In this document: positions 76-54,328 of the stretch, piece after piece
How the letters are laid out: the number at the start of each line of letters is the position of its first letter
Numbering within the stretch: position 1 is the first letter of the stretch
From: a virus
Length of the DNA: 64,000 nucleotides
Virus genome (UHGV): UHGV-0148165
Strand: one strand, 5' to 3'
Made by a program: the position numbers and the translations under genes
Notes under the pieces: generated by a model
Databases searched by the model: none
What the model was told of the DNA's origin: nothing
What the model saw: the letters and a program-made list of their open reading frames with translations, nothing else

Positions 76-432
76 ATGTATAGTTCTGAATTTTCATATT
101 TAAAAATTGAAAAAATTTCATACGATTTTATAGATGAAAAGGTTTATTACAGTTTCCATGAACCACGTTTTAATAGTGAGGTTGGGTTTATTGCAGTAAA
201 AGACAATTTTATTTTAAAAATATATTCAGCATTAAAGGATTTTCATTACGAAAATATTAACCTAAAATTTAATAAAGAAAATGTTCGTAATTGCGCGGTA
301 ACAATTACAGGAAATAAAGGTACATGTGTTATGCTATCTGATGAAATTAATGATTTGCTAAATGATGCAGAAAATATTACTGCACCATCTATTGATGACC
401 AAATTTTTAATGCTTTTATGAATAGAGGTTAA
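76..432 (+). CDS. hypothetical early protein, 118 aa (position of the small 61.x ORFs upstream of the primase gene)
   Basis: ATG 76 with GAGG 5 nt upstream; complete ORF; no recognisable motif. Confidence 0.5.
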   Translation: MYSSEFSYLKIEKISYDFIDEKVYYSFHEPRFNSEVGFIAVKDNFILKIYSALKDFHYENINLKFNKENVRNCAVTITGNKGTCVMLSDEINDLLNDAENITAPSIDDQIFNAFMNRG

Positions 433-3264: not shown

Positions 3265-3324
3265 TTGCTTACATATTCAAATGATATAATTATTTAACTT
3301 ATTAATGAATTGAAAGGAAAAATA

Positions 3325-3843
3325 ATGGCTCACTTTAATGAATGCGCTCATTTGATCGAAGGTGTTGATAAAGCAACTCGTGCATATACTGAGAATATTA
3401 TGCACAATATTGACCCATTGCAGGTTATGCTTGATATGCAGCGGTCTTTACAGATTCGTTTGGCTAATGATAAGCCAGAAACAAATCGTCATCCTGATTC
3501 ACTTGAAACCGCAGGAGAAGTTCTTGCTTGGCTGCGAAACCAAGACGATTATATCGCAGACGAAACTCGCGAGCTATATACTTCTCTTGGTGGTATGAGT
3601 AATGGTGAAAAAGAAGCTTCTGCTGTATGGAAACCTTGGAAGAAACGTTATTCTGAAATGCAATCCAAGAAAATTCAAGATTTATCTCCTGAAGATCAAC
3701 TTGAAATTAAATTTGAACTAATTGACCAATTTCACTTTTTCATGAATAAATTTATTGCTCTTGGAATGTCAGCTGAAGAAATCTTTAAACTTTATTATCT
3801 GAAAAATGCTGAAAACTTCGCTCGTCAAGATCGAGGTTATTAA
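3325..3843 (+). CDS. 56: dCTP pyrophosphatase gp56 (MazG-like all-alpha NTP pyrophosphatase), 172 aa
   Basis: ATG 3325 after AAGGA (track ORF starts at upstream TTG 3310); acidic ETAGEVLAWL...DETRE motif. Confidence 0.85.
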   Translation: MAHFNECAHLIEGVDKATRAYTENIMHNIDPLQVMLDMQRSLQIRLANDKPETNRHPDSLETAGEVLAWLRNQDDYIADETRELYTSLGGMSNGEKEASAVWKPWKKRYSEMQSKKIQDLSPEDQLEIKFELIDQFHFFMNKFIALGMSAEEIFKLYYLKNAENFARQDRGY

Positions 3844-3888
3844 TAGCTCGTTTAAATAAACGACGACTTAAAAGCCGCGAGAATTTAT

Positions 3889-3896
3889 TATAAATA
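3889..3896 (+). promoter_or_regulatory. late promoter TATAAATA upstream of soc
   Basis: exact TATAAATA 31 nt upstream of soc ATG. Confidence 0.5.
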
Positions 3897-3926
3897 ATCA
3901 TGTAATTTAAATAAAAGGAGAATTAC

Positions 3927-4172
3927 ATGGCTAGTACTCGCGGTTATGTTAATATTAAAACATTTGAGCAGAAATTAGATGGAAATAAGAAAATTGAAGG
4001 AAAGGAAATTTCTGTAGCTTTCCCTCTTTATTCTGACGTTCACAAAATTTCTGGCGCTCATTACCAGATATTCCCTTCAGAAAAAGCAGCATATTCTACA
4101 GTATATGAAGAAAATCAACGTGCTGCATGGATTGCTGCAAATGAAGATTTGTGGAAAGTAACTGGTGAATAA
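3927..4172 (+). CDS. soc: small outer capsid protein Soc, 81 aa
   Basis: MASTRGYVNIKTFEQKLDGNKKIEGKEISVAFPLYSDVHKISGAHYQ... matches T4 Soc as recalled. Confidence 0.9.
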   Translation: MASTRGYVNIKTFEQKLDGNKKIEGKEISVAFPLYSDVHKISGAHYQIFPSEKAAYSTVYEENQRAAWIAANEDLWKVTGE

Positions 4173-4176
4173 ATTT

Positions 4177-4202
4177 AAGGACTCCTTCGGGAGTCCTTTT
4201 TT
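4177..4202 (+). terminator. intrinsic terminator, UUCG-tetraloop hairpin plus T-run
   Basis: AAGGACTCC-TTCG-GGAGTCCTT followed by TTTT directly after soc stop. Confidence 0.65.
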
Positions 4203-13941: not shown

Positions 13942-14313
13942 ATGTTTAAAATTGGTAAGAAATATCGCATTCGCGAAGGTGAAGAAAAGAAATATCTATT
14001 TTCTGCTATTTATAGGAATGGTTCTATTAGTAATGTAATATCTACAAGCGAATTTATCGTTGAAGATATGAAAGGTAATAATGTTACAATGATTAGTACA
14101 GCATCTGGAAATGACGGAAAAATTCTTCACAGTCTTCGGAGTGAAGTTTTAATTTATGATGAAGAATTTGACTTCTTCGAAGAAGTTCCCGAAGATTTTG
14201 ATTTTGAATGCACTATTACTATGAAGTCTGGTGACCCTCTTTCTTTTACAGTTAAAGATGAAAGAAGTCGCTTGAGAGTTATTAGCCTTCTTCAAGCCAT
14301 TAAATTTAAGTGA
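13942..14313 (+). CDS. hypothetical protein, 123 aa
   Basis: complete ORF with ATG 13942. Confidence 0.45.
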   Translation: MFKIGKKYRIREGEEKKYLFSAIYRNGSISNVISTSEFIVEDMKGNNVTMISTASGNDGKILHSLRSEVLIYDEEFDFFEEVPEDFDFECTITMKSGDPLSFTVKDERSRLRVISLLQAIKFK

Positions 14314-14648: not shown

Positions 14649-16466
14649 ATGATTAAGAATGAAATTAAAATTCTGAGCGATATTGAACATATCAAAAAGC
14701 GTAGTGGCATGTACATTGGCTCTTCAGCTAATGAAATGCATGAGCGCTTTCTGTTTGGTAAATGGGAAAGTGTTCAGTATGTACCTGGTCTTGTTAAGCT
14801 TATTGATGAAATTATCGATAACTCAGTAGATGAAGGTATTCGTACTAAGTTTAAATTCGCAAATAAAATTAATGTTACTATTAAAAACAATCAAGTAACA
14901 GTTGAAGATAACGGTCGCGGTATTCCACAAGCGATGGTTAAAACACCTACCGGTGAAGAAATTCCTGGTCCTGTTGCTGCATGGACTATTCCAAAAGCAG
15001 GTGGTAACTTCGGTGATGATAAAGAACGTGTCACCGGTGGTATGAACGGTGTTGGTTCTAGTTTGACAAACATTTTTTCTGTGATGTTTGTCGGTGAAAC
15101 TGGTGATGGTCAAAATAATATTGTAGTTCGTTGTTCAAATGGCATGGAAAATAAATCATGGGAAGATATTCCTGGAAAATGGAAAGGAACTCGTGTTACT
15201 TTCATTCCTGATTTTATGTCATTTGAAACTAATGAGCTGTCCCAAGTTTATCTTGACATTACATTAGATCGTCTCCAGACACTTGCAGTAGTTTATCCTG
15301 ATATTCAATTTACCTTTAATGGTAAAAAGGTTCAGGGCAATTTTAAGAAATATGCACGCCAATATGATGAGCATGCTATTGTTCAAGAACAAGAAAATTG
15401 TTCTATTGCAGTTGGTCGTTCACCGGATGGTTTTCGTCAATTAACATACGTTAATAACATTCATACTAAGAATGGTGGCCATCACATTGACTGTGTTATG
15501 GATGATATTTGTGAAGACCTTATTCCACAAATCAAACGTAAGTTCAAAATTGATGTGACTAAAGCACGCGTCAAAGAATGTTTGACTATCGTTATGTTTG
15601 TTCGTGATATGAAAAACATGCGATTTGATTCTCAAACTAAAGAACGTTTGACTTCTCCATTTGGCGAAATTCGTAGTCATATTCAACTTGATGCTAAAAA
15701 GATTTCACGTGCTATTTTGAATAATGAAGCAATTTTAATGCCGATTATTGAAGCTGCTTTGGCTCGTAAATTGGCGGCAGAAAAAGCAGCAGAAACTAAA
15801 GCAGCTAAAAAGGCTTCTAAAGCTAAGGTTCATAAACATATCAAAGCGAATCTTTGTGGTAAAGATGCTGACACTACTCTTTTCTTGACTGAGGGTGATT
15901 CGGCTATCGGATATCTTATTGATGTTCGTGATAAAGAACTTCACGGTGGTTATCCATTGCGCGGTAAAGTTCTCAACAGTTGGGGTATGTCATATGCTGA
16001 TATGCTTAAAAACAAAGAATTGTTTGATATTTGCGCAATCACTGGATTAGTTCTTGGTGAAAAAGCCGAAAACTTGAATTATCATAATATTGCTATTATG
16101 ACCGATGCTGACCACGATGGTCTAGGAAGCATTTATCCTTCTCTGCTCGGATTTTTTAGTAATTGGCCAGAACTGTTTGAACAAGGAAGAATTCGCTTTG
16201 TCAAAACTCCTGTAATCATCGCTCAGGTCGGTAAAAAACAAGAATGGTTTTATACAGTCGCTGAATATGAGAGTGCTAAAGATGCTCTACCTAAACATAG
16301 CATCCGTTATATTAAAGGACTTGGCTCTTTGGAAAAATCTGAATATCGTGAGATGATTCAAAACCCAGTATATGATGTTGTTAAACTTCCTGAGAACTGG
16401 AAAGAGCTTTTTGAAATGCTCATGGGAGATAATGCTGACCTTCGTAAAGAATGGATGAGCCAGTAG
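14649..16466 (+). CDS. 39: DNA topoisomerase II large subunit gp39, GyrB-like, uninterrupted 605-aa form
   Basis: GHKL ATPase motifs (NSVDEG, DNGRGIP, GGMNGVGSS) plus TOPRIM region (LTEGDSA, DADHDG) in one ORF; ATG 14649. Confidence 0.9.
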   Translation: MIKNEIKILSDIEHIKKRSGMYIGSSANEMHERFLFGKWESVQYVPGLVKLIDEIIDNSVDEGIRTKFKFANKINVTIKNNQVTVEDNGRGIPQAMVKTPTGEEIPGPVAAWTIPKAGGNFGDDKERVTGGMNGVGSSLTNIFSVMFVGETGDGQNNIVVRCSNGMENKSWEDIPGKWKGTRVTFIPDFMSFETNELSQVYLDITLDRLQTLAVVYPDIQFTFNGKKVQGNFKKYARQYDEHAIVQEQENCSIAVGRSPDGFRQLTYVNNIHTKNGGHHIDCVMDDICEDLIPQIKRKFKIDVTKARVKECLTIVMFVRDMKNMRFDSQTKERLTSPFGEIRSHIQLDAKKISRAILNNEAILMPIIEAALARKLAAEKAAETKAAKKASKAKVHKHIKANLCGKDADTTLFLTEGDSAIGYLIDVRDKELHGGYPLRGKVLNSWGMSYADMLKNKELFDICAITGLVLGEKAENLNYHNIAIMTDADHDGLGSIYPSLLGFFSNWPELFEQGRIRFVKTPVIIAQVGKKQEWFYTVAEYESAKDALPKHSIRYIKGLGSLEKSEYREMIQNPVYDVVKLPENWKELFEMLMGDNADLRKEWMSQ

Positions 16467-20800: not shown

Positions 20801-21064
20801 ATGAAATTTAAATTTTATTACGCTAAACATAAAATTACCGGTGAATTTATTGCATTTACGACTTCAACTACAGATGAAGGAGATATTTTTACTGCAGTAT
20901 TTTTATCAAAATGGGAATCAGATCAACCTTACTTATCATCACGTGAAGATCTCCAACGATTAGTTAATGGAGAATATAATGATTCATGGTCATATTTAGT
21001 CCATGATTGTGTTAAAAAGGCAATAAAACAAAAACACTTGGAAATCGTTGAGATTGAACTATGA
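20801..21064 (+). CDS. hypothetical protein, 87 aa
   Basis: ATG after GGAGGAGTAAAA. Confidence 0.5.
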   Translation: MKFKFYYAKHKITGEFIAFTTSTTDEGDIFTAVFLSKWESDQPYLSSREDLQRLVNGEYNDSWSYLVHDCVKKAIKQKHLEIVEIEL

Positions 21065-27872: not shown

Positions 27873-28670
27873 TTATACTCTTGGACCATATATTACTCCA
27901 ACATTTTGCCAAGTTGGAGCAGATCCTATGACAGCATAACCTGCTGCTCCTCCTGCACCAACCTTTAGAACTTTACCACCATCAGACCAGGCATTTTGTC
28001 CATTTCCTCCGGCATCGCCGCCCTGGCCAGAGTGAGCATTTCCGTATTGGTAACCACCTCCTGGGGCGACGTATGAAGCTGCGCCACCTGAGTAACCACC
28101 GCCACCACCTGGGCCAAATGGTCTTCCGCCACCACCACCAATATCTTGCCAGCGTGCCCCTGAGTGAACACGGTAAGCAATGCCGCCACCACCGCCTCCG
28201 CCACCACAGATTACTCCACCATTGTTAATTCTTAATCGTCCACCAATGTCGTTTTGAATACAATGCCCGCCTTGTTGTCCATTACCATCTCCACCGAAAT
28301 GAGTCCATCCACCTTGTCCACCTCTACCCCACATATGAGCGCCAATAATATTTAACTGAACATATTCATTTGGTGTATCTCCGTACATGAAGAATAAAGG
28401 AACATCTTTAGAATATGATACTAAATCACCTGTAATATTAAACACTATAGGTGCATTACCTGCCTCAAAACATCTATCTCGGAACCATTGACCATTGAAG
28501 TTATGGTCTGCTCCAAGCGTGTGAATAATTTCTCGTGAGCGACCTGCAAATTGACTCATCCAGCAAGGAACACCCAATCTTAATTGACCAGCCGCTTGAC
28601 TCATCCATCGTTGTCCTGTTTCATTTACGGATGAACTACCAATCCAGCCAGGAACTCCAACTACTGCCAT
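27873..28670 (-). CDS. 38: long tail fibre tip adhesin gp38, T2-type, with glycine-rich motifs, 265 aa
   Basis: poly-Gly tracts (GGGGGGGG, GGGGG) between variable segments; N-terminus [13 protein letters not shown]...; downstream of gene 37. Confidence 0.8.
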
Positions 28671-28704
28671 AATTTATCTCCAAAGGGGGCGTTGCCCCTT
28701 GTTG

Positions 28705-31700
28705 TTAGAATTTAAAATATTTACTAATTTTGCGAGCAATTTTAGTGAAGAAAGGCGTTTTTAATTCTTTAATTTCTTCACTCATTTCCTGAATGGCCTT
28801 AATTAAAAGAGCATTCACAGCGGAGTTAGAAATTGTCAGAACTTCGTCTGGTTTATCAAGATTGCCAATTTTCGAAATATTAATCGCTTCTGGTAATATT
28901 TCTTGTAAATCCTGTGCGATAATGCCGATCTCATGACCGATAATTTCACGGTCCTTAAGAGATTTAACTTTATCGTAAGTTTTCACTTTCAGTTTACCAA
29001 TCAAACTTAACGCATTTCCGGTATAATCTTCTATATTGTCTTTAAGGCGACGGTCTGATCGAATATAAACATCGTTAAAGTTTCCGTTGCCACTGGCATC
29101 AAAGCTCCCATTTGCATGGAATTGATAATCAGCAGCCTGAACATGAAGAATCGCTGTCGCAGTATTATTACTATCACCGGGACAATGAACGTCCAGAGCA
29201 GCGATGAAGTTACGCCCCCAATCAACCGCTTTCCAAATAGCATGAGCACTATTAACGCTTTGTTGACAGTCAAGCAACAAACCAGCAGGGCGATCTCTCC
29301 AATTCACATAAGCACCACCAGAAACTTCACCGCGAATAAGCCCTTGATCTCCGGCATAAGGAACACGCTCTCCCACTTTAATCATTGCACCCTGGAAGTG
29401 ATGACTAAATGAACCCCCATGATTATTTCGTATATGTAAAATACTATCATCGGTCGCCCAAATAACAGCCTTTTCTGTATCGCTGCTATCTCTAAACCAG
29501 ATATGGCGAGCACCAGTAGAGGTTTTGATAGTAATCCCGGAAGGTCCATGCGCAGTAAAATCGCCAGCAACATCAAACATCAAACTGTTATCTGTCCTGC
29601 GTTCCGTATAGAAGTGATAACCTTTGGAATCACCGACTTCCATCACTGCCGGGCGACCAACTTCTGAATTTCCCCAATTATTAATAGAGAATCGTTCAGA
29701 GCTATTATTCATCTGATTTAGGTATAATGTACCATCAGTGAATGTTTCGCCAAAGAAACGAGTTTTAATTGCACCTGTCGCTAAAGTACGTTCAGTGGAA
29801 AAATGGGCGCCTTGACTATCTTCTAACTGGATGATGTTATCACGAGCGTTATTGCTATCACCCCAATGGTTAAATTTAAAATAATCTCGTGATCCTAAAC
29901 GTCCGGCGTCAAAAGTCATCGTGCCTTTCATGTTAATATCACCACCAAAAAATGCGGTGAGAGAATCACGTTTTAATTTTAAAACGTTAGCACCACTAGC
30001 ACCACCTAAAGTAACATCACCAGTTCTTAATTCATAACGGAAAGGTCTATTTGTATTAAAGTTTCCATCTTGATCATCTTCGTCGGTGGAAAGAATATAA
30101 AGACTCTCTCCATCATTACGTAAAAATGTACCAAATTTTCCGCCATACATACGGAATGCATTCAACGAGCGGAATTTAACTTCTGTTTTAAATGTGGTAG
30201 TGTTATTAACTTTAACAGTAGAGTTAAAGTTAACTGCGCCATTAAAATCTTGTTTAGCAGTCCAAGTATGTGATCCGTCTTCAAGAACAACGCGTCGAAC
30301 TGTACATGTTCTACTCCCTGGATTACCGAATACACGAACGACAAAATAACGATAGTTTGTCTGGGATACAGTTCCACGCCAAACCTGAACAGTACGTCCT
30401 GTGCTGGTGTGCTCGCTAGGACCAACAGAAAACATAATTAAGTTTCCGTCAATCGTACCCCAATCCATATTAGCTGGCATGTTCTTTATTTTGTTCAAAG
30501 GAACGCTAAACATACTACCAGGAACAAAATCAAATGCTTGCCAGTCTAACTCTGCTAAGTTAGATTTAATACCACCCATACCCAAAGTAATTGGAAGAGA
30601 GTAAGATGTATATACTTCGTTCCATGTACCCCAAACACCGCCGGTGTATGCGCGCTCAAAAATACGATCGCGGGTAGTTGCACCTGTTCCGGCAGTAGTA
30701 AATTTTTGGAAAATAGCACCACCAGAAGCACGCTGTTTAACTTCCAGCAAACCAACAATAACGGCTGGTAAACCTTCGCCTGTAGGACAATTAATAACGG
30801 CATCAGTGCCTAAAATATTATATAACCCAGGAGTTTTAAAATCATTCAGATCTCCGTCATAGAAAGTCGCTGGTGTGACATTACCGACTTGTTGCCACGG
30901 TCCCCATTTAGGCGCAGAAGCATCCCACGCAGCAGTAAGACAGCGAGTATAAACAACACCAAATCTGGTCGTATATCTCTGTGTGCGAGAATAGTTTCCA
31001 CCTTCAAATATTTCTAAAAATCCTTGTGCGGCTGATCCTTTTTCTGGATAATGGCGATCAAATGATGCGATTGCGCTTGAACTGTTTCGCCATAAGCCAC
31101 AATGTTCTAATTCTCCCAAGCTATCAAGGTCAATCGTTTGTGAAAGTGGACGAGTTGACGCTTGAACATTACGCCACACACCCCATGGACCATCGACGCC
31201 ATTCCATTTAGCAGATAAGGAACGAATATAGACGTTACCAGATCTTACAGTATAACGCTGAGTGCCAGCAAATTGGCCGGCCACAAACACTTCTAGTACA
31301 CCTACGGCATTTTCTTCTGGGAATTTATTTGCTGGTTGCGCATTTGTTGAAGTAGATTTCGACCAAACACCAAGATATTCTTCAACAGGCCCATACGTAT
31401 CTAAATTAGCATCAGTAGGTAATTCGCCATTATTTTTTATAAATGTTGTGCTATTGACATTTATGTCAGATGGAGTTAGCGTGATATCTTTTGACCCATC
31501 AAAAGATATACCATTAATTTTCCTAGGTGTTTGCAATTTAGTAGCTGTGCTAGAATTTCCAATTAAAGTTCCAGTTATATTTTCTGTAACCTCTAAAGAC
31601 CCATTTATAGTTCCTCCATATTTTAAACCTAATTCTATAACACTACCTGAGTCATCTTTTGTGAAAATTGTTTTATCTTTTAAGTTTATAGCCAATTCAC

Positions 31701-31779
31701 CTTCGGCTAATACTGAAGCAGCAGGACGTTGACCTGCAGTTTTGCTTCTTTTAAATTGTATTTGTTTTAAAGTAGCCAT
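28705..31779 (-). CDS. 37: long tail fibre distal subunit gp37, 1024 aa
   Basis: size and position in the 34-35-36-37-38 block; C-terminal region with His-containing repeats. Confidence 0.9.
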
Positions 31780-38794: not shown

Positions 38795-39110
38795 CATTCG
38801 TCCGGTCGATGAGACCGGTCTTTCAGAAAAAGAACTTTCAATTAAGAAAGAAAAGGATGAAATTGCAAAGCTTCTTGACCGCCAAGAAAATGGATTTATT
38901 ATTGAAAAAATGGTAGAAGAGTTTGGAATGAGTTATCTTGAAGCTACAACAGCATTCTTAGAAGAAAATTCTATTCCTGAAACTCAATTTGCTAAATTTA
39001 TTCCTTCGGGTATAATTGAAAAAATTCAGTCAGAAGCCATTGACGAAAATCTTTTACGTCCTTCTGTTGTTCGTTGTGAAAAAACTAATACATTAGATTT
39101 TCTGCTATGA
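38772..39110 (+). CDS. 33: late transcription co-activator gp33, 112 aa
   Basis: 112 aa from ATG 38772 (track starts at TTG 38763); position before gene 59. Confidence 0.75.
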   Translation: MTQFSLNDIRPVDETGLSEKELSIKKEKDEIAKLLDRQENGFIIEKMVEEFGMSYLEATTAFLEENSIPETQFAKFIPSGIIEKIQSEAIDENLLRPSVVRCEKTNTLDFLL

Positions 39111-39760
39111 TTAAACTCCGCATGCCTGCTGGTGGTGAAAGATACATTGATGGTAAATCAGTTTATAAATTATACTTAATGATAAAACAACATATGAATG
39201 GAAAGTATGATGTAATTAAGTATAATTGGTGCATGCGGGTGTCTGATGCCGCTTATCAAAAGCGAAGGGATAAGTATTTTTTCCAGAAGTTATCAGAAAA
39301 ATATAAATTAAAGGAACTTGCTTTAATCTTTATAAGTAATTTGGTTGCTAACCAAGATGCTTGGATTGGTGACATCTCTGACGCTGATGCACTTGTGTTT
39401 TATCGTGAATATATCGGACGCTTAAAGCAAATTAAATTTAAGTTTGAAGAAGATATTCGCAACATTTATTATTTTAGTAAAAAAGTTGAAGTTTCTGCTT
39501 TTAAAGAAATCTTTGAGTATAATCCAAAAGTCCAATCAAGTTATATTTTTAAACTACTTCAATCGAATATAATTTCGTTTGAAACGTTTATCTTGCTTGA
39601 TTCGTTTTTAAATATAATTGATAAACATGATGAACAGACTGATAATTTAGTCTGGAATAATTATTCTATAAAGTTAAAGGCTTATAGAAAAATTTTAAAT
39701 ATTGATTCACAGAAAGCTAAAAATGTTTTCATTGAAACTGTGAAATCTTGCAAGTATTAA
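39107..39760 (+). CDS. 59: helicase loader gp59, 217 aa
   Basis: length identical to T4 gp59; immediately upstream of gene 32. Confidence 0.85.
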   Translation: MIKLRMPAGGERYIDGKSVYKLYLMIKQHMNGKYDVIKYNWCMRVSDAAYQKRRDKYFFQKLSEKYKLKELALIFISNLVANQDAWIGDISDADALVFYREYIGRLKQIKFKFEEDIRNIYYFSKKVEVSAFKEIFEYNPKVQSSYIFKLLQSNIISFETFILLDSFLNIIDKHDEQTDNLVWNNYSIKLKAYRKILNIDSQKAKNVFIETVKSCKY

Positions 39761-39768
39761 TTGCTTAT

Positions 39769-39776
39769 TATAAATA
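39769..39776 (+). promoter_or_regulatory. late promoter TATAAATA upstream of gene 32
   Basis: exact TATAAATA in the 59-32 intergenic region. Confidence 0.45.
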
Positions 39777-39793
39777 GATTATAATTATCTCAC

Positions 39794-39825
39794 TGACCAG
39801 CTATGAGGTCATACATCGTCATAGC
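39794..39825 (+). promoter_or_regulatory. gene 32 translational operator, H-type RNA pseudoknot
   Basis: TGACC...GGTCA stem 1 interleaved with GCTATG...CATAGC stem 2, followed by AU-rich unstructured tract up to the ATG. Confidence 0.7.
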
Positions 39826-39859
39826 ACCAACTGTTAATTAAATTAAAAAGGAAATAAAA

Positions 39860-40768
39860 ATGTTTAAACGTAAATCTACTGCTGAACTCGCTGCGCAAAT
39901 GGCTAAACTGGCTGGAAATAAAGGTGGTTTTTCTTCTGAAGATAAAGGCGAGTGGAAACTGAAACTCGATAATGCGGGTAACGGTCAAGCAGTAATTCGT
40001 TTTCTTCCGTCTAAAAATGATGAACAAGCACCATTCGCAATTCTTGTAAATCACGGTTTCAAGAAAAATGGTAAATGGTATATTGAAACATGTTCATCTA
40101 CTCACGGTGATTACGATTCTTGCCCAGTATGTCAATACATCAGTAAAAATGATCTGTACAACACTGACAATAAAGAGTACAGTCTTGTTAAACGTAAAAC
40201 TTCTTACTGGGCTAACATTCTTGTTGTAAAAGACCCAGCTGCTCCAGAAAACGAAGGTAAAGTATTTAAATACCGTTTCGGTAAGAAAATCTGGGATAAA
40301 ATCAATGCAATGATTGCGGTTGATGTCGAAATGGGTGAAACTCCGGTTGATGTAACTTGTCCGTGGGAAGGTGCTAACTTTGTACTGAAAGTTAAACAAG
40401 TTTCTGGATTTAGTAACTACGATGAATCTAAATTCCTGAATCAATCTGCGATTCCAAACATTGACGATGAATCTTTCCAGAAAGAACTGTTCGAACAAAT
40501 GGTTGACCTTTCTGAAATGACTTCTAAAGATAAATTCAAATCGTTTGAAGAACTGAGCACTAAGTTCAGTCAAGTTATGGGAACTGCTGCTATGGGTGGT
40601 GCCGCTGCAACTGCTGCTAAGAAAGCTGATAAAGTTGCTGATGATTTGGATGCATTCAATGTTGATGACTTCAATACAAAAACTGAAGATGATTTTATGA
40701 GCTCAAGCTCTGGCAGTTCATCTAGTGCTGATGACACGGATCTGGATGACCTTTTAAATGACCTTTAA
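39860..40768 (+). CDS. 32: single-stranded DNA-binding protein gp32, 302 aa
   Basis: [50 protein letters not shown]... and acidic C-terminus match T4 gp32 as recalled. Confidence 0.9.
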
Positions 40769-41965: not shown

Positions 41966-42994
<1,029 letters not shown>

Positions 42995-42995
<1 letters not shown>

Positions 42996-43543
42996 TGAAA
43001 CAATACCAATTTTTAATTAAAGATATCCTGGAAAATGGCTACGAAACCGATGACCGAACAGGCACAGGAACAATTGCTTTGTTCGGTACTAAATTACGCT
43101 GGGATTTAACTAAAGGTTTTCCTGCAGTAACAACTAAGAAGCTCGCCTGGAAAGCTTGCATTGCTGAGCTAATATGGTTTTTATCGGGAAGCACAAATGT
43201 CAATGATTTACGATTAATTCAGCATGATTCGTTAATCCAAGGCAAAACAGTCTGGGATGAAAATTACGAAAATCAAGCAAAAGATTTAGGATACCATAGC
43301 GGTGAACTTGGTCCAATTTATGGAAAACAATGGCGCGATTTTGGCGGTGTAGACCAAATTATAGAAGTTGTTGATCGTATTAAAAAATTGCCAAATGATA
43401 GGCGTCAAATTGTTTCAGCATGGAATCCAGCTGAACTCAAGCAGATGGCATTACCGCCTTGTCATATGTTCTATCAGTTTAATGTGCGTAATGGCTATTT
43501 GGATTTGCAGTGGTATCAACGATCAGTAGATGTTTTCTTGGGT
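42995..43543 (+). CDS. td: thymidylate synthase, exon 1 (183 codons)
   Basis: MKQYQFLIKDILENGYETDDRTGTGT...; reading frame hits TAA at the first intron codon. Confidence 0.9.
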
Positions 43544-44559
43544 TAATTGAGGCCTGAGTATAAGGTGACTTATACTTGTAATCTATCTAAACGGGGAACC
43601 TCTCTAGTAGACAATCCCGTGCTAAATTGTAGGACTGCCCTTTAATAAATACTTCTATATTTAAAGAGGTATTTATGAAAAGCGGAATTTATCAGATTAA
43701 AAATACTTTAAACAATAAAGTATATGTAGGAAGTGCTAAAGATTTTGAAAAGAGATGGAAGAGGCATTTTAAAGATTTAGAAAAAGGATGCCATTCTTCT
43801 ATAAAGCTTCAGAGGTCTTTTAACAAACATGGTAATGTGTTTGAATGTTCTATTTTGGAAGAAATTCCATATGAGAAAGATTTGATTATTGAACGAGAAA
43901 ATTTTTGGATTAAAGAGCTTAATTCTAAAATTAATGGATACAATATTGCTGATGCAACGTTTGGTGATACATGTTCTACGCATCCATTAAAAGAAGAAAT
44001 TATTAAGAAACGTTCTGAAACTGTTAAAGCTAAGATGCTTAAACTTGGACCTGATGGTCGGAAAGCTCTTTACAGTAAACCCGGAAGTAAAAACGGGCGT
44101 TGGAATCCAGAAACCCATAAGTTTTGTAAGTGCGGTGTTCGCATACAAACTTCTGCTTATACTTGTAGTAAATGCAGAAATCGTTCAGGTGAAAATAATT
44201 CATTCTTTAATCATAAGCATTCAGACATAACTAAATCTAAAATATCAGAAAAGATGAAAGGTAAAAAGCCTAGTAATATTAAAAAGATTTCATGTGATGG
44301 GGTTATTTTTGATTGTGCAGCAGATGCAGCTAGACATTTTAAAATTTCGTCTGGATTAGTTACTTATCGTGTAAAATCTGATAAATGGAATTGGTTCTAC
44401 ATAAATGCCTAACGACTATCCCTTTGGGGAGTAGGGTCAAGTGACTCGAAACGATAGACAACTTGCTTTAACAAGTTGGAGATATAGTCTGATCTGCATG
44501 GTGACATGCAGCTGGATATAATTCCGGGGTAAGATTAACGACCTTATCTGAACATAATG
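43544..44559 (+). mobile_element. group I self-splicing intron in td, 1016 nt, carrying I-TevI
   Basis: exon 1 ends GGT, intron starts TAATTGAGGCCTGAGTATAAGGTG, conserved core GTAGGGTCAAGTGACTCGAAA, intron ends ...AACATAATG; exons rejoin in frame. Confidence 0.9.
43675..44412 (+). CDS. GIY-YIG homing endonuclease I-TevI, 245 aa
   Basis: GIY-YIG motif IYQIKNTLNNKVYVGSAKDFEKR; C-terminal zinc finger and DNA-binding region; inside td intron. Confidence 0.9.
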   Translation: MKSGIYQIKNTLNNKVYVGSAKDFEKRWKRHFKDLEKGCHSSIKLQRSFNKHGNVFECSILEEIPYEKDLIIERENFWIKELNSKINGYNIADATFGDTCSTHPLKEEIIKKRSETVKAKMLKLGPDGRKALYSKPGSKNGRWNPETHKFCKCGVRIQTSAYTCSKCRNRSGENNSFFNHKHSDITKSKISEKMKGKKPSNIKKISCDGVIFDCAADAARHFKISSGLVTYRVKSDKWNWFYINA

Positions 44560-44871
44560 CTACCATTTAATATTGCATCATATGCTACGTTAGTTCATAT
44601 TGTAGCTAAGATGTGTAATCTTATTCCGGGAGATTTGATATTTTCCGGTGGTAATACTCATATCTATATGAATCACGTAGAACAATGTAAAGAAATTTTA
44701 CGTCGTGAACCTAAAGAGCTTTGTGAACTGGTAATAGGCGGATTGCCTTATAAATTCCGCTATCTTTCTACTAAAGAACAATTGGAATACATTCTTAAAC
44801 TCAGGCCTAAAGATTTCGTTCTCAAAGATTATCAGTCCCACGGCGTCTTGAAAGGAAAAATGGCGGTGTAA
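44560..44871 (+). CDS. td: thymidylate synthase, exon 2 (103 codons)
   Basis: LPFNIASYATLVHIVAKMCNLIPGD... continues the TS fold. Confidence 0.9.
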   Translation, partial: LPFNIASYATLVHIVAKMCNLIPGDLIFSGGNTHIYMNHVEQCKEILRREPKELCELVIGGLPYKFRYLSTKEQLEYILKLRPKDFVLKDYQSHGVLKGKMAV

Positions 44872-45158: not shown

Positions 45159-45438
45159 ATATAAATCCGACTTTGATGTTAATATTCACCGTGGTACATT
45201 TTGGGGAAATTACGTCGGTAAAGATGCTGGCAGCCGGGAGGCTGCCATTGAATTATTCAAAAAAGATTTTATACGTCGAATTAAATCCGGAGAAATAACT
45301 AAAGCACATTTAGAGCCTTTACGTGGAATGAGGCTAGGATGCACATGTAAACCAAAGCCGTGTCATGGTGATATAATAGCTCATATAGTTAACCGACTGT
45401 TTAAAGACGATTTTCAAGTTGAGGACTTATGCAATTAA
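45112..45438 (+). CDS. hypothetical protein, 108 aa, Cys/His cluster
   Basis: [12 protein letters not shown] motif; overlaps neighbours, true start uncertain. Confidence 0.4.
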
Positions 45439-47693
45439 TTAATGTTATCAAAAGTAGTGGTGTTTCTCAGAGCTTTGACCCGCAAAAAATTATTAAAGTT
45501 TTATCTTGGGCAGCTGAAGGAACATCAGTAGATCCTTATGAATTATATGAAAATATTAAATCTTATCTCCGTGATGGAATGACAACTGATGATATTCAGA
45601 CTATTGTCATTAAGGCCGCTGCGAATTCTATTTCGGTTGAAGAGCCTGATTATCAATATGTAGCTGCACGCTGTTTAATGTTCGCTCTTCGTAAGCATGT
45701 TTATGGGCAGTATGAACCACGTTCATTTATTGACCATATTTCTTACTGTGTAAATGAAGGTAAATATGACCCTGAATTGTTGTCAAAATATTCAGCAGAA
45801 GAAATTACATTTTTAGAATCAAAAATTAAGCACGAGCGGGATATGGAATTTACTTATTCCGGAGCGATGCAATTAAAAGAAAAATATCTAGTCAAAGATA
45901 AAACCACCGGTCAAATTTATGAAACTCCGCAGTTTGCATTTATGACTATTGGAATGGCATTGCATCAAGATGAACCTGTTGATAGACTAAAACACGTTAT
46001 CCGTTTTTATGAAGCAGTATCTACTCGACAGATTTCATTGCCAACTCCTATTATGGCTGGTTGCCGTACTCCGACTCGACAGTTTAGTTCATGTGTTGTT
46101 ATTGAGGCAGGAGATTCATTGAAGTCTATCAATAAGGCTTCCGCTTCAATTGTTGAATATATCTCTAAACGCGCTGGAATTGGTATTAACGTTGGTATGA
46201 TTCGTGCCGAAGGTTCTAAGATTGGCATGGGTGAAGTACGCCATACTGGTGTTATTCCTTTTTGGAAACATTTTCAGACTGCAGTTAAATCATGTTCACA
46301 GGGTGGAATTCGTGGCGGCGCTGCTACTGCTTATTATCCTATTTGGCATTTGGAAGTTGAAAATCTTCTCGTTTTGAAAAATAACAAAGGCGTAGAAGAA
46401 AACCGCATTCGTCATATGGATTATGGTGTTCAACTGAATGATTTGATGATGGAACGTTTTGGAAAGAACGATTACATTACTTTGTTCAGTCCCCATGAAA
46501 TGGGTGGAGAGCTTTATTATTCTTATTTTAAAGACCAAGACCGTTTCCGTGAATTATACGAAGCAGCAGAAAAAGACCCTAATATTCGTAAAAAGCGTAT
46601 TAAAGCCCGTGAACTATTTGAATTGCTCATGACTGAACGTTCAGGAACAGCAAGGATTTATGTACAGTTCATTGATAATACGAATAACTATACTCCGTTT
46701 ATTCGTGAAAAGGCACCTATTCGTCAGAGTAACTTGTGCTGTGAAATTGCTATTCCAACAAATGATGTGAATAGTCCTGATGCTGAAATTGGATTGTGTA
46801 CTCTCTCTGCATTCGTACTAGATAATTTTGACTGGCAAGACCAAGATAAAATTAATGAATTGGCAGAAGTTCAAGTTCGTGCTCTTGATAATCTTTTGGA
46901 TTACCAAGGATATCCAGTTCCTGAAGCAGAAAAAGCTAAAAAGCGTCGTAACCTTGGCGTAGGTGTTACCAACTATGCAGCTTGGCTGGCAAGTAACTTT
47001 GCTTCTTATGAAGATGCTAACGATTTAACACATGAACTATTTGAGAGATTACAGTATGGACTCATTAAAGCATCCATTAAGCTCGCCAAAGAAAAAGGAC
47101 CTTGCGAATATTATTCAGACACTCGTTGGTCTCGAGGCGAATTACCTATCGACTGGTACAATAAAAAGATTGACCAAATCGCAGCTCCAAAATACGTTTG
47201 TGACTGGTCGTCGCTGCGGGAAGACCTCAAGCTCTTTGGCATCCGTAATAGCACATTATCAGCACTTATGCCATGTGAGTCATCTTCCCAAGTTTCTAAC
47301 AGTACAAACGGTATCGAGCCTCCACGTGGACCGGTAAGTGTTAAAGAATCAAAAGAGGGTTCCTTTAATCAAGTCGTGCCCAATATTGAGCATAACATAG
47401 ACCTCTATGATTATACGTGGAAATTAGCTAAGAAAGGTAATAAACCTTATCTTACACAGGTAGCTATTATGCTGAAATGGGTATGTCAATCAGCTTCAGC
47501 GAATACATACTATGACCCGCAAATTTTTCCAAAAGGAAAGGTTCCAATGTCAATAATGATTGATGACATGCTATATGGATGGTATTATGGCATTAAAAAT
47601 TTCTATTATCATAATACCCGTGATGGTTCTGGTACTGATGATTATGAAATAGAAACTCCAAAAGCTGAAGATTGTTCATCCTGTAAATTATGA
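45429..47693 (+). CDS. nrdA: ribonucleotide reductase large subunit NrdA, 754 aa
   Basis: N-terminal ATP-cone, class I RNR catalytic core; length matches T4 NrdA. Confidence 0.9.
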   Translation: MQLINVIKSSGVSQSFDPQKIIKVLSWAAEGTSVDPYELYENIKSYLRDGMTTDDIQTIVIKAAANSISVEEPDYQYVAARCLMFALRKHVYGQYEPRSFIDHISYCVNEGKYDPELLSKYSAEEITFLESKIKHERDMEFTYSGAMQLKEKYLVKDKTTGQIYETPQFAFMTIGMALHQDEPVDRLKHVIRFYEAVSTRQISLPTPIMAGCRTPTRQFSSCVVIEAGDSLKSINKASASIVEYISKRAGIGINVGMIRAEGSKIGMGEVRHTGVIPFWKHFQTAVKSCSQGGIRGGAATAYYPIWHLEVENLLVLKNNKGVEENRIRHMDYGVQLNDLMMERFGKNDYITLFSPHEMGGELYYSYFKDQDRFRELYEAAEKDPNIRKKRIKARELFELLMTERSGTARIYVQFIDNTNNYTPFIREKAPIRQSNLCCEIAIPTNDVNSPDAEIGLCTLSAFVLDNFDWQDQDKINELAEVQVRALDNLLDYQGYPVPEAEKAKKRRNLGVGVTNYAAWLASNFASYEDANDLTHELFERLQYGLIKASIKLAKEKGPCEYYSDTRWSRGELPIDWYNKKIDQIAAPKYVCDWSSLREDLKLFGIRNSTLSALMPCESSSQVSNSTNGIEPPRGPVSVKESKEGSFNQVVPNIEHNIDLYDYTWKLAKKGNKPYLTQVAIMLKWVCQSASANTYYDPQIFPKGKVPMSIMIDDMLYGWYYGIKNFYYHNTRDGSGTDDYEIETPKAEDCSSCKL

Positions 47694-47744
47694 TATAATT
47701 TGACTCATGGACGAGTCACTATCTATTAACTAAGTGGAAAATTT

Positions 47745-48420
47745 ATGAGCACAGTTTTTAATACAAACCCAGTTGATGTTTTAAAAGAACCTATGTTTTT
47801 TGGTTCAGGTCTTGGTATTGCGCGTTATGATATTCAACGCCATAAAGTTTTTGAAGATTTGACCGAAAAGCAATTGTCATTTTTCTGGCGTCCTGAAGAA
47901 GTAAACTTAATGATGGATGCTGCACAGTTTAATAAGCTTCCTCAGTATCAGCAAAATATTTTTACTAATAACCTGAAGTATCAATCACTTTTGGATAGCA
48001 TTCAGGGTCGTGCGCCATCTGCTGTACTTATGTCATTAATTTCAGACCCGAGTCTTGATACATGGGTTGCTACATGGACTTTTAGTGAAACTATTCACAG
48101 CCGTTCATATACACATATCATGCGAAATCTTTATACTGATCCATCGAAGGTATTTGATGAGATTGTATTAGATGAAGCTATTATGAAACGTGCTGAATCC
48201 ATTGGACGCTATTATGATGACGTTCTGATTAAAACCCGTGAATGGGAAAATGCTAAAGAATTTGTAGAACTAGCTAAAGAATCTCCTGATGCTGTCTTTC
48301 GTTTAAACCGAGCTATTAAACAAGAAGCCGAAGCTAAACGTGCTTTAATGAAATCTCTTTACCTCTGTTTGCACGTTATTAATGCCTTAGAAGCAATTCG
48401 TTTTTATGTATCTTTTGCGT
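47745..48420 (+). CDS. nrdB: ribonucleotide reductase small subunit NrdB, exon 1
   Basis: ends ...LEAIRFYVSFA + first base of Cys codon; frame then hits TAA in the intron. Confidence 0.85.
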
Positions 48421-49510
48421 AAAATGCGCCTTTAAACGGTAACGTTTATCGAAAACTCCTTTAATTGCTGGAAAGTCCTTTATAGGAAAACTAGCAGCCA
48501 AGGTTTTGCTTGCACCTTTAATTAGTATAATATAAATATGATTATACTTTTAAGAGGATGCACAATTGAACTATAGAAAAATTTGGATAGATGCTAACGG
48601 ACCTATACCTAAAGATTCTGATGGAAGAACATACGAAATCCATCATAAAGACGGTAACCGTGAAAATAATGATTTAGATAATTTGATGTGCCTTTCTATA
48701 CAGGAACATTATGATATACATTTAGCTCAAAAAGATTACCAGGCTTGTCATGCTATAAAGCTTAGAATGAAATATTCTCCTGAAGAAATTTCTGAATTAG
48801 CTTCTAAAGCCGCAAAATCTAGAGAAATCCAGATTTTTAATATCCCTGAAGTACGAGCTAAAAATATTGCCTCTATTAAATCTAAGATAGAAAATGGTAC
48901 ATTTCATCTTTTAGATGGTGAAATACAGCGTAAATCTAATTTAAATAGAGCTGCATTAGGTATACATAATTTTCAACAAGCTGAGCATATTGCAAAAGTT
49001 AAAGAACGCAATATTGCAGCTATAAAAGAAGGTACTCATGTATTTTGCGGTGGTAAAATGCAGTCAGAAACTCAATCAAAACGGGTAAATGACGGTTCAC
49101 ATCATTTCTTATCAGAAGACCATAAGAAAAGAACATCAGCAAAAACATTAGAAATGGTTAAGAACGGGACCCATCCTGCACAAAAAGAAATCACATGTGA
49201 TTTCTGTGGTCACATTGGTAAAAGTCCTGGATTTTATCTAAAACATAATGACAGATGTAAATTAAATCCAAATAGAATTCAATTGAATTGTCCATATTGT
49301 GATAAGAAAGATTTATCACCATCAACATATAAACGATGGCACGGCGACAATTGCAAAACAAGGTTCAACGACTAGTCTTCGGACGTAGGGTCAAGCGACT
49401 CGAAATGGGGAGAATCCCTCCGGGATTGTGATATAGTCTGGACTGCATGGTAACATGCAGCAGTTCATAAGAGAACGGGTTGAGAATTAGCGAGCTCAAT
49501 CGAACATACG
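48421..49510 (+). mobile_element. group I self-splicing intron in nrdB, 1090 nt, carrying a full-length HNH endonuclease gene
   Basis: exon 1 ends with U, intron ends with G 49510; shares core GTAGGGTCAAGCGACTCGAAA and 3' CTGCATGGTAACATGCAG with the td intron; exons rejoin to ...SFACTFNFHKNMEIMEGNAK. Confidence 0.8.
48566..49375 (+). CDS. HNH homing endonuclease (I-TevIII-like), 269 aa, TTG start
   Basis: HNH motif EIHHKDGNRENNDLDNLMCLSIQEH; C-terminal Cys-rich zinc-finger-like region; inside nrdB intron; AAGAGG 8 nt upstream of TTG. Confidence 0.8.
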   Translation: MNYRKIWIDANGPIPKDSDGRTYEIHHKDGNRENNDLDNLMCLSIQEHYDIHLAQKDYQACHAIKLRMKYSPEEISELASKAAKSREIQIFNIPEVRAKNIASIKSKIENGTFHLLDGEIQRKSNLNRAALGIHNFQQAEHIAKVKERNIAAIKEGTHVFCGGKMQSETQSKRVNDGSHHFLSEDHKKRTSAKTLEMVKNGTHPAQKEITCDFCGHIGKSPGFYLKHNDRCKLNPNRIQLNCPYCDKKDLSPSTYKRWHGDNCKTRFND

Positions 49511-50013
49511 GTACCTTTAACTTCCATAAAAACATGGAAATCATGGAAGGTAATGCCAAGATTATGAAGTTCATTGCACGCGATGAACAGCTTCACCTTA
49601 AAGGCACCCAATATATTATTCGTCAACTTCAATCTGGTACTGATGGCGATGAATGGGTTAAAATTGCTCAAGAGTGTGAACAAGAAGCAGTTGATATTTT
49701 CATGGAAGTTAACCGCCAAGAAAAAGATTGGGCAGTTCATTTATTTAAAGATGGCGATGTTCCTGGATTAAATACAAATAGCATGTGGAGCTTTATTGAT
49801 TACTTAACTGTATCTCGTATGAAACAGTGCGGTCTTCCATGCCCAATTACCGATGCTCCGGTTAAACATCCATATCCTTGGATTCGTGAATATCTTAATT
49901 CTGATAATGTTCAATCCGCGCCACAAGAAGTAGAACTGTCATCTTATCTTGTTGCACAGATTGATAATGATGTTGATGATAAAGTTATGATGAGTTTTAA
50001 AAAATACTTTTAA
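49511..50013 (+). CDS. nrdB: ribonucleotide reductase small subunit NrdB, exon 2
   Basis: MEGNAKIMKFIARDEQLHLKGTQ... conserved RNR R2 region. Confidence 0.85.

Positions 50014-53059: not shown

Positions 53060-53063
<4 letters not shown>
52833..53063 (+). CDS. hypothetical protein, 76 aa
   Basis: start overlaps upstream stop. Confidence 0.45.
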
Positions 53064-54264
<1,201 letters not shown>

Positions 54265-54328
54265 TGGCTTGGCACCATGAAACTTGGGATATTATTAATT
54301 GGCTTGAAGAAAATTATGTGAGGTAAAT

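Follow-up and report, generated by a model that had tools for sequence, protein, structure and literature searches.

Three junctions that hold free-standing homing endonuclease genes in phage T4 are very probably unoccupied T2-type alleles in a mosaic Tequatrovirus

Phage T4, with its 15 homing endonuclease genes (HEGs), has been described as 'an oddity' that 'remains the outlier', most of its relatives having few such genes (PMC2988022), and T2 has been named as a relative with few HEGs (PMC10055350). Free-standing endonucleases do not cut where their genes are inserted but hundreds of base pairs away, within a neighbouring gene (PMC2988022, PMC2790892), the targets being gene 56 for SegF, gene 32 for SegG and nrdB for MobE (PMC2988022). 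The T4 promoters for gene 32 and nrdB sit within segG and mobE (PMC2988022, PMC2790892), and the defunct I-TevIII of T4 relies on mobE, acting in trans, for its mobility (PMC2790892). In the T4 genome (NC_000866), segF (15606-16280) is annotated between soc and 56, SegG (147909-148541) between 32 and 59, and mobE (139991-140416) plus nrdB.1 between nrdA and nrdB, while mobA and 60.1 divide the topoisomerase gene into genes 39 and 60. A first-pass annotation of the DNA studied here had placed segF, segG and mobE of T4 at these junctions, allowing that T4 itself might lack genes there; NC_000866 confirms the placement, as T4 has genes at all three positions.

The 64-kb stretch of DNA analysed here (the window) comes from a T-even phage of the genus Tequatrovirus and is reversed relative to the T4 map: it runs from ~19.2 kb of T4 down to position 1, wraps at rIIB (168.9 kb) and continues to ~124 kb. 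Blastn aligned it in collinear blocks of 88-98% identity to these two stretches of NC_000866, and the nucleotide identity to T4 is 92-97% over most of its length. No end-to-end match was found among the deposited phage genomes, the best deposited matches reaching 97% identity across the first 24 kb and 98.7% across a stretch of 12 kb. The window thus represents a separate mosaic member of a group that has been sampled densely.

T2 (NC_054931), the classical HEG-poor recipient in T4 x T2 marker exclusion, resembles the window in having identical 99-bp 59/32 and 51-bp nrdA/nrdB spacers, an unsplit gene 39, a T2-type gene 56, AAG as codon 42 of nrdB, a T2-type gp38 adhesin and the same open reading frame (ORF) upstream of dam. 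It differs in carrying two small ORFs (~345 bp) at 56/soc, a T2-type soc, and no intron in td or nrdB, whereas the window combines an empty 56/soc junction and a T4-type soc with both introns and their intact endonucleases. Shigella phage SHFML-11 (NC_030953) has, according to its annotation, the 99-bp and 51-bp gaps, I-TevI and a 269-aa I-TevIII, and Escherichia phage vB_Eco_BCPEco_001 (PV295200) matched all three junction queries in one piece, without an insert. Both phages have a 56/soc junction without an insert and are 98.6-98.7% identical to the window over 12 kb; they differ from it in the ORF located between frd and td (115 aa as compared to 68 aa in the window) and in showing only ~95-96% identity around dam-soc. 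RB3, the source of active I-TevIII, likewise has a full-length I-TevIII in its nrdB intron and is 97.1% identical over the 12-kb region, but its match is broken into 7 pieces and spans ~1.7 kb beyond the query, which indicates extra inserts. RB5, a close relative of RB3, has an empty 56/soc junction, as does the window. Lastly, T4 shares with the window its gene order, a td intron with I-TevI, an nrdB intron and the T4-type soc. It differs in the presence of segF, SegG, mobE with nrdB.1, and mobA/60.1 with the split gene 39/60, in a diverged gene 56, in a truncated I-TevIII (97 aa) and in the deletion of the ORF upstream of dam. We regard the phage as a mosaic Tequatrovirus with a T2-like backbone at the junction loci.

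Further differences from T4 were observed along the window. The tail-fibre adhesin gp38 (region 27873-31779, minus strand; 265 aa; Pfam GP38 and Gp38_N) is of the T2 type, and neither gene 38 nor the distal portion of gene 37 aligns with T4, in agreement with a receptor-recognition module of the T2 kind. T4 gene 61.2 has a homologue here (76-432, plus strand) that encodes 118 aa as compared to 208 aa in T4 and matches Pfam AdfA (anti-DarT factor A) only over the C-terminal half of the model, with no T4 alignment upstream of position 388. Near position 54290, ~318 bp of T4 (cd.4/cd.5) are missing. A plus-strand ORF of 123 aa that is absent from T4 (13942-14313) has a goF-like N-terminus (PHROG 622); also absent from T4 are the plus-strand ORFs at 20801-21064 (87 aa), 41966-42211 (81 aa) and 53060-53362 (100 aa), and all four belong to PHROGs without an assigned function. 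The 68-aa ORF between frd and td (42789-42995, plus strand) overlaps with both neighbours, at the stop of frd (ATGA) and at the start of td (TAATG). It was matched by neither NCBIfam nor PADLOC and is unrelated to the 115-aa ORF found there in SHFML-11, which T2 carries unannotated. In T4, frd and td overlap directly; frd/td is another polymorphic cassette site.

A 186-aa ORF (1925-2485) is located directly upstream of dam, its stop overlapping the dam start. It contains an invariant D72...E85-x-K87 motif, and shows sub-threshold Pfam matches to DpnII, a GATC enzyme, and a PADLOC match to a type II restriction enzyme (E 9e-5). The same ORF is present in ~155 phage records, including T2, where it is always annotated as 'hypothetical', and T4 appears to retain only approximately the last 28 codons. 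Its product may be restriction-endonuclease-like, and with such a nuclease-like ORF directly upstream, the Dam protein of these phages may not be an orphan methyltransferase.

The spacers at the three junctions have the lengths that the first-pass annotation had given them. Between the end of gene 56 (3843) and the start of soc (3927) there are 83 bp (3844-3926); gene 59 (end, 39760) and gene 32 (start, 39860) are separated by 99 bp (39761-39859), and nrdA (end, 47693) and nrdB (start, 47745) by 51 bp (47694-47744). All flanking genes are encoded by the plus strand. Gene 56 (3325-3843; dCTPase/dUTPase) belongs to the nucleoside triphosphate pyrophosphohydrolase PHROG, and its homologous ATG start is at 3325, the mechanically called ORF beginning with a TTG at 3310. 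The soc gene (3927-4172; small outer capsid protein) matches Pfam Soc with an E-value of 8e-53 and is followed on its 3' side by a terminator hairpin (4177-4198). Gene 59 (39107-39760; helicase loader) matches Pfam T4_Gp59_N and T4_Gp59_C, its product being 100% identical to that of T4, and gene 32 (39860-40768; single-stranded DNA-binding protein) matches Pfam gp32. The product of nrdA (45429-47693) shows 100% amino acid identity to T2 NrdA and 99.1% to that of T4, and Pfam identified the nrdB product as the ribonucleotide reductase small chain. Altogether, the proteins of the flanking genes are 95-100% identical to their T4 or T2 versions. By the Pfam assignments and the 92-97% collinearity with T4, the orthologues of the genes that flank the T4 endonuclease genes are directly adjacent to each other at all three junctions.

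The DNA that T4 has in excess of the window, as determined by blastn, amounts to 660 bp at 56/soc, 624 bp at 59/32, ~700 bp at nrdA/nrdB and 1118 bp in gene 39, and searches with this T4-only DNA by blastn-short and tblastx gave no match at the junctions. When T4 SegF, SegG, MobE, the mobA fragment, gp60.1 and nrdB.1 were compared by phmmer with the 914 six-frame stop-to-stop segments of the window, I-TevI and I-TevIII were the only matches. There is no GIY-YIG ORF at 56/soc or 59/32, the sole GIY-YIG protein found in the window being I-TevI, and no HNH ORF at nrdA/nrdB or inside gene 39, the sole HNH protein found being I-TevIII. According to Pfam and PHROGs, none of the ORFs that the window has in addition to those of T4 (1925-2485, 13942-14313, 20801-21064, 41966-42211 and 53060-53362) encodes a homing endonuclease, and the same is true for the ORFs in the T4-diverged regions of the window. 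Gene 39 (topoisomerase II large subunit; 14649-16466, plus strand) had been reported as unsplit, and it is indeed a single ORF of 605-606 aa that starts with the ATG at 14649 and encodes all topoisomerase domains (HATPase_c, DNA_gyraseB, Toprim and the C-terminal domain in Pfam). The mobA/60.1/gene-60 bypass cassette of T4 is missing from it, the 1118 extra bp of T4 being located between window positions 16066 and 16131. The broader claim of the first-pass annotation, that the phage lacks the free-standing endonuclease genes, thus holds for the four T4 sites that fall within the 64-kb window; the eight further free-standing sites of T4 (segA-E and mobB-D) are located outside it. Its companion claim, that both intron-borne endonucleases are kept, is correct for this region, where I-TevI and I-TevIII are found inside introns; the third intron endonuclease of T4, I-TevII in nrdD, falls outside the window.

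The 56/soc spacer (3844-3926, plus strand), which is the empty counterpart of the segF site, contains the ribosome-binding site of soc and, 31 nt upstream of this gene, the late-promoter motif TATAAATA (3889-3896), and the fold of its RNA was not significant (z 0.42). At its two ends, the 416-bp 56/soc spacer of T2 corresponds to positions 3846-3862 and 3875-3926 of the window, and the ~345 bp of T2 that contain two small ORFs are missing from the window. The 56/soc junction has at least three forms, namely an empty form, a form with the small-ORF insert (T2, T6) and a form with segF (T4). The two genes that meet here are of different types. gp56 shows 96.1% amino acid and 94.6% nucleotide identity to T2, as compared to 68% and 70.9%, respectively, to T4, and among the sites in gene 56 that differ between T2 and T4, 137 are T2-like and 4 are T4-like. 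The soc gene is 97.2% identical to that of T4 and 80.5% identical to that of T2 at the nucleotide level, with 51 T4-like versus 2 T2-like sites. A T2-type gene 56 thus abuts a T4-type soc, and the 56/soc junction itself is therefore a recombination point.

The 59/32 spacer (39761-39859, plus strand), the empty counterpart of the segG site, contains the same motif at 39769-39776. It also contains the autoregulatory pseudoknot of gene 32 at 39794-39825 (stem 1, TGACC/GGTCA; stem 2, GCTATGA/TCATAGC), of which stem 2 was recovered by folding, followed by TTAAA/TAAA repeats and a ribosome-binding site. As judged from the described architecture of the gp32 translational operator (PMC535899), the pseudoknot, the repeats and the ribosome-binding site together constitute a complete operator. 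The first 36 bp of the spacer (39761-39796), including the late-promoter motif, have no counterpart in T4, which has the 3' end of segG at this position. The nrdA/nrdB spacer (47694-47744, plus strand), the empty counterpart of the mobE site, contains hairpins at 47701-47718 and 47722-47738. This hairpin region (47701-47738) has a folding energy of -10.1 kcal/mol (z -2.57), one of its hairpins was found by a hairpin scan, and it is identical in T2. In addition, the second hairpin pairs with the purine-rich sequence that immediately precedes the nrdB start, and it could modulate the translation of nrdB. Both the 59/32 and the nrdA/nrdB spacer are 100% identical to those of phage T2.

Across the whole window, TATAAATA has 10 matches as compared to 9.8 expected. 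This absence of enrichment means that the late-promoter reading rests on the position of the motif and on established knowledge of T4. Scans of the three spacers for sigma-70 promoters and terminators revealed nothing beyond the expectation from shuffled sequences, except the weak nrdA/nrdB hairpin, and Rfam at gathering thresholds gave no match in the window. Each spacer very probably represents a compact regulatory region of the downstream gene: the 56/soc spacer provides a late promoter and a ribosome-binding site for soc, the 59/32 spacer a late promoter and the gp32 translational operator, with its pseudoknot and UUAAA repeats, for gene 32, and the nrdA/nrdB spacer a short structured leader for nrdB.

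The first-pass annotation had presented the endonuclease genes as expected from T4 and absent here, and the appropriate background for such a statement is the occupancy of the junctions among relatives rather than chance. We therefore compared queries of ~1 kb, each with a junction at its centre, with a public phage collection and determined the match spans in an evenly spaced sample of 60 records. At 59/32, 31 of the 43 usable rows (at least 95% identity) were empty and 12 contained segG. The nrdA/nrdB junction was empty in 28 of 39 usable rows (at least 90% identity) and contained one of four different inserts in the other 11, of which 2 are of the T4 type. T2 is among the empty rows at both of these junctions. 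For 56/soc, the 38 usable rows (both flanks matched) included 17 empty junctions, 17 junctions with the ~330-bp small-ORF insert and 4 with segF. The empty state is thus the commonest one among the sampled relatives, being tied for that position at 56/soc. The tblastn counts point in the same direction: SegF was found with at least 95% identity in 46 records, SegG with at least 95% identity in 141 records and MobE with at least 90% identity in 21 records, as compared to 539-735 records matched by each of the junction regions. Since T4 is an outlier and empty junctions are the commonest state among the sampled public phages, absence of these genes is the norm and T4 was the wrong baseline. The feature is a well-documented presence/absence polymorphism, which is real but ordinary.

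The intron-borne endonucleases are embedded in genes whose exon boundaries could be defined by alignment to the intron-less T2 versions. T2 td and nrdB each align as two blocks, which are ~1018 and ~1092 nt apart, respectively, and these distances correspond to the introns. The td gene (42995-44871, plus strand) is split by a group I intron at ~43542-44559, which contains the 245-aa I-TevI ORF (43675-44412, plus strand) with GIY-YIG, zinc-finger and DNA-binding domains (phmmer against T4 I-TevI, E 4.6e-171). In a permissive scan the Rfam Intron_gpI model scored 42.5 bits on this intron (E 2.9e-8), below its gathering score of 50, and it did not match the nrdB intron even in that scan. In nrdB, exon 1 (47745-48418) is followed by a group I intron of ~1.09 kb (48419-49510) and by exon 2 (49511-50013), which has 96.2% nucleotide identity to nucleotides 677-1179 of T2 nrdB, all on the plus strand. 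The intron contains a full-length I-TevIII ORF of 269 aa with a TTG start (48566-49375, plus strand), which matches Pfam HNH_3 and PHROG 12324, the latter over residues 1-269 of 269 (E 4e-192). One of the matches to TATAAATA is located upstream of this ORF, at 48531-48538. The intron is 477 bp longer than the deleted version of T4, in which I-TevIII is truncated to 97 aa.

The exons of nrdB are mosaic. The first 150 nt contain 29 T2-like and 0 T4-like sites, an abrupt switch from the T2 type to the T4 type occurs at nt 141-189 (47885-47933), and beyond the switch T4-like sites predominate over the ~500 nt that precede the intron and over ~300 nt of exon 2. This is the pattern that would be expected from homing of the intron into a mobE-less, T2-like genome, driven by I-TevIII and accompanied by co-conversion of the exons. 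A T2-like backbone would have gained, or retained, the introns of td and nrdB together with the endonucleases that they encode. An intact I-TevIII without mobE represents the autonomous counterpart of the T4 arrangement; this fits the published models and extends none of them.

To judge the sensitivity of the target genes, every site that differs between T2 and T4 was classed as T2-like or T4-like, the T2 type being the sensitive one. The site cut by SegF probably lies ~200 bp into gene 56, and that cut by SegG some hundreds of bp into gene 32. The suggestion of the first-pass annotation that the junctions themselves would be the targets needs to be corrected, because the cut sites lie in genes 56, 32 and nrdB instead (PMC2988022, PMC2790892). 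Judged at the level of the whole gene, gene 56 is likely to be sensitive to SegF. The nicks made by MobE map to codon 42 of T2 nrdB; phages without mobE all have AAG at this codon (PMC2790892), and so does the window (47868-47870). At two nearby positions, nt 117 and nt 129, nrdB differs silently from T2. Gene 32 is a T2/T4 mosaic with 22 T2-like and 18 T4-like sites, its 5' 66 nt being of the T2 type and nt 177-375 mostly of the T4 type. Marker exclusion by T4 therefore seems plausible at gene 56 and nrdB. On co-infection with T4, these loci are predicted to behave as recipients, with SegF cutting within gene 56 and MobE nicking nrdB in the vicinity of codon 42. Repair with T4 DNA as the template would subsequently introduce the endonuclease gene, at the expense of the local markers.

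Taken together, the three spacers are very probably unoccupied, T2-type alleles of the sites that hold free-standing HEGs in T4, rather than deletion derivatives of the T4 arrangement. The 59/32 and nrdA/nrdB spacers are fully identical to T2 and the 56/soc spacer is collinear with T2 at both ends. For the former two, the identity to T2 and the sequence without a T4 counterpart imply that they did not arise by simple deletion of the T4 gene. Indeed, the spacers hold signals that T4 lacks, and the location of the T4 promoters within segG and mobE likewise favours unoccupied alleles over deletion scars. No evidence contradicting the empty-site reading was found. The alternative that the ancestor had segF, segG and mobE, as T4 does, and that later deletions left the short spacers agrees with homing-cycle theory, according to which HEGs are expected to decay and vanish once they are fixed. 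T4 itself contains decayed copies in its I-TevIII and mobA, and a fitness cost of HEG carriage has been suggested (PMC10055350). We nevertheless consider such a secondary loss very unlikely: no remnant of any of the three genes is present in the window, the spacers contain promoter and operator sequences that are absent in T4, two of them being identical to T2, and simple deletion would be harmful with the promoters of gene 32 and nrdB residing within segG and mobE (PMC2988022, PMC2790892). It should be noted that loss by recombination with a HEG-less allele and a state that was never invaded are indistinguishable by sequence. That the endonuclease genes are present in the phage and were collapsed or lost during assembly is a negligible possibility, for which no support was found. 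The junctions are continuous and base-for-base identical to the independent T2 genome, and the same arrangement is found in many independently sequenced phages.

A different question is whether the empty sites are immune, in the sense that changes to the targets within gene 32 and nrdB have made them refractory to SegG and MobE, with the T4-type tract of gene 32 being the scar of a cleavage that was repaired without gain of segG. Such conversion without gain of the HEG is permitted by cleavage far from the insertion site (PMC2988022), and the mostly T4-type nt 177-375 of gene 32 are indeed found next to a T2-type 5' end and spacer. Moreover, the differences from T2 at nt 117 and 129 of nrdB fall inside the polymorphic region (nt 114-131) that Wilson and Edgell proposed to contact the nuclease domain of MobE (PMC2790892). 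However, with AAG at codon 42 and 29 T2-like versus 0 T4-like sites in its first 150 nt, nrdB is of the sensitive type, and gene 56 is of the T2 type throughout. Fine T2/T4 mosaicism is found throughout the region, nrdA and td being examples, and the pattern in gene 32 consequently needs no special cause. Immunity of the sites thus appears rather unlikely. Equally doubtful, in our view, is the related idea that the junctions record past encounters with endonucleases, in which the gene 32 tract would be a scar of SegG repair, the sharp switch in nrdB, immediately after the MobE site, would mark the end of an I-TevIII conversion, and the sites would possibly be partly immune. If it were true, the phage would offer a natural example of target-gene conversion uncoupled from the gain of an endonuclease.

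With the three spacers read as unoccupied T2-type alleles, the gene 56 and nrdB regions, and perhaps gene 32, are predicted to be overwritten in a mixed infection with T4. The importance of the finding extends little beyond annotation; the phage could serve as a recipient in work on homing or marker exclusion. It belongs, by this result, with the HEG-poor, T2-like majority of the T-even phages.
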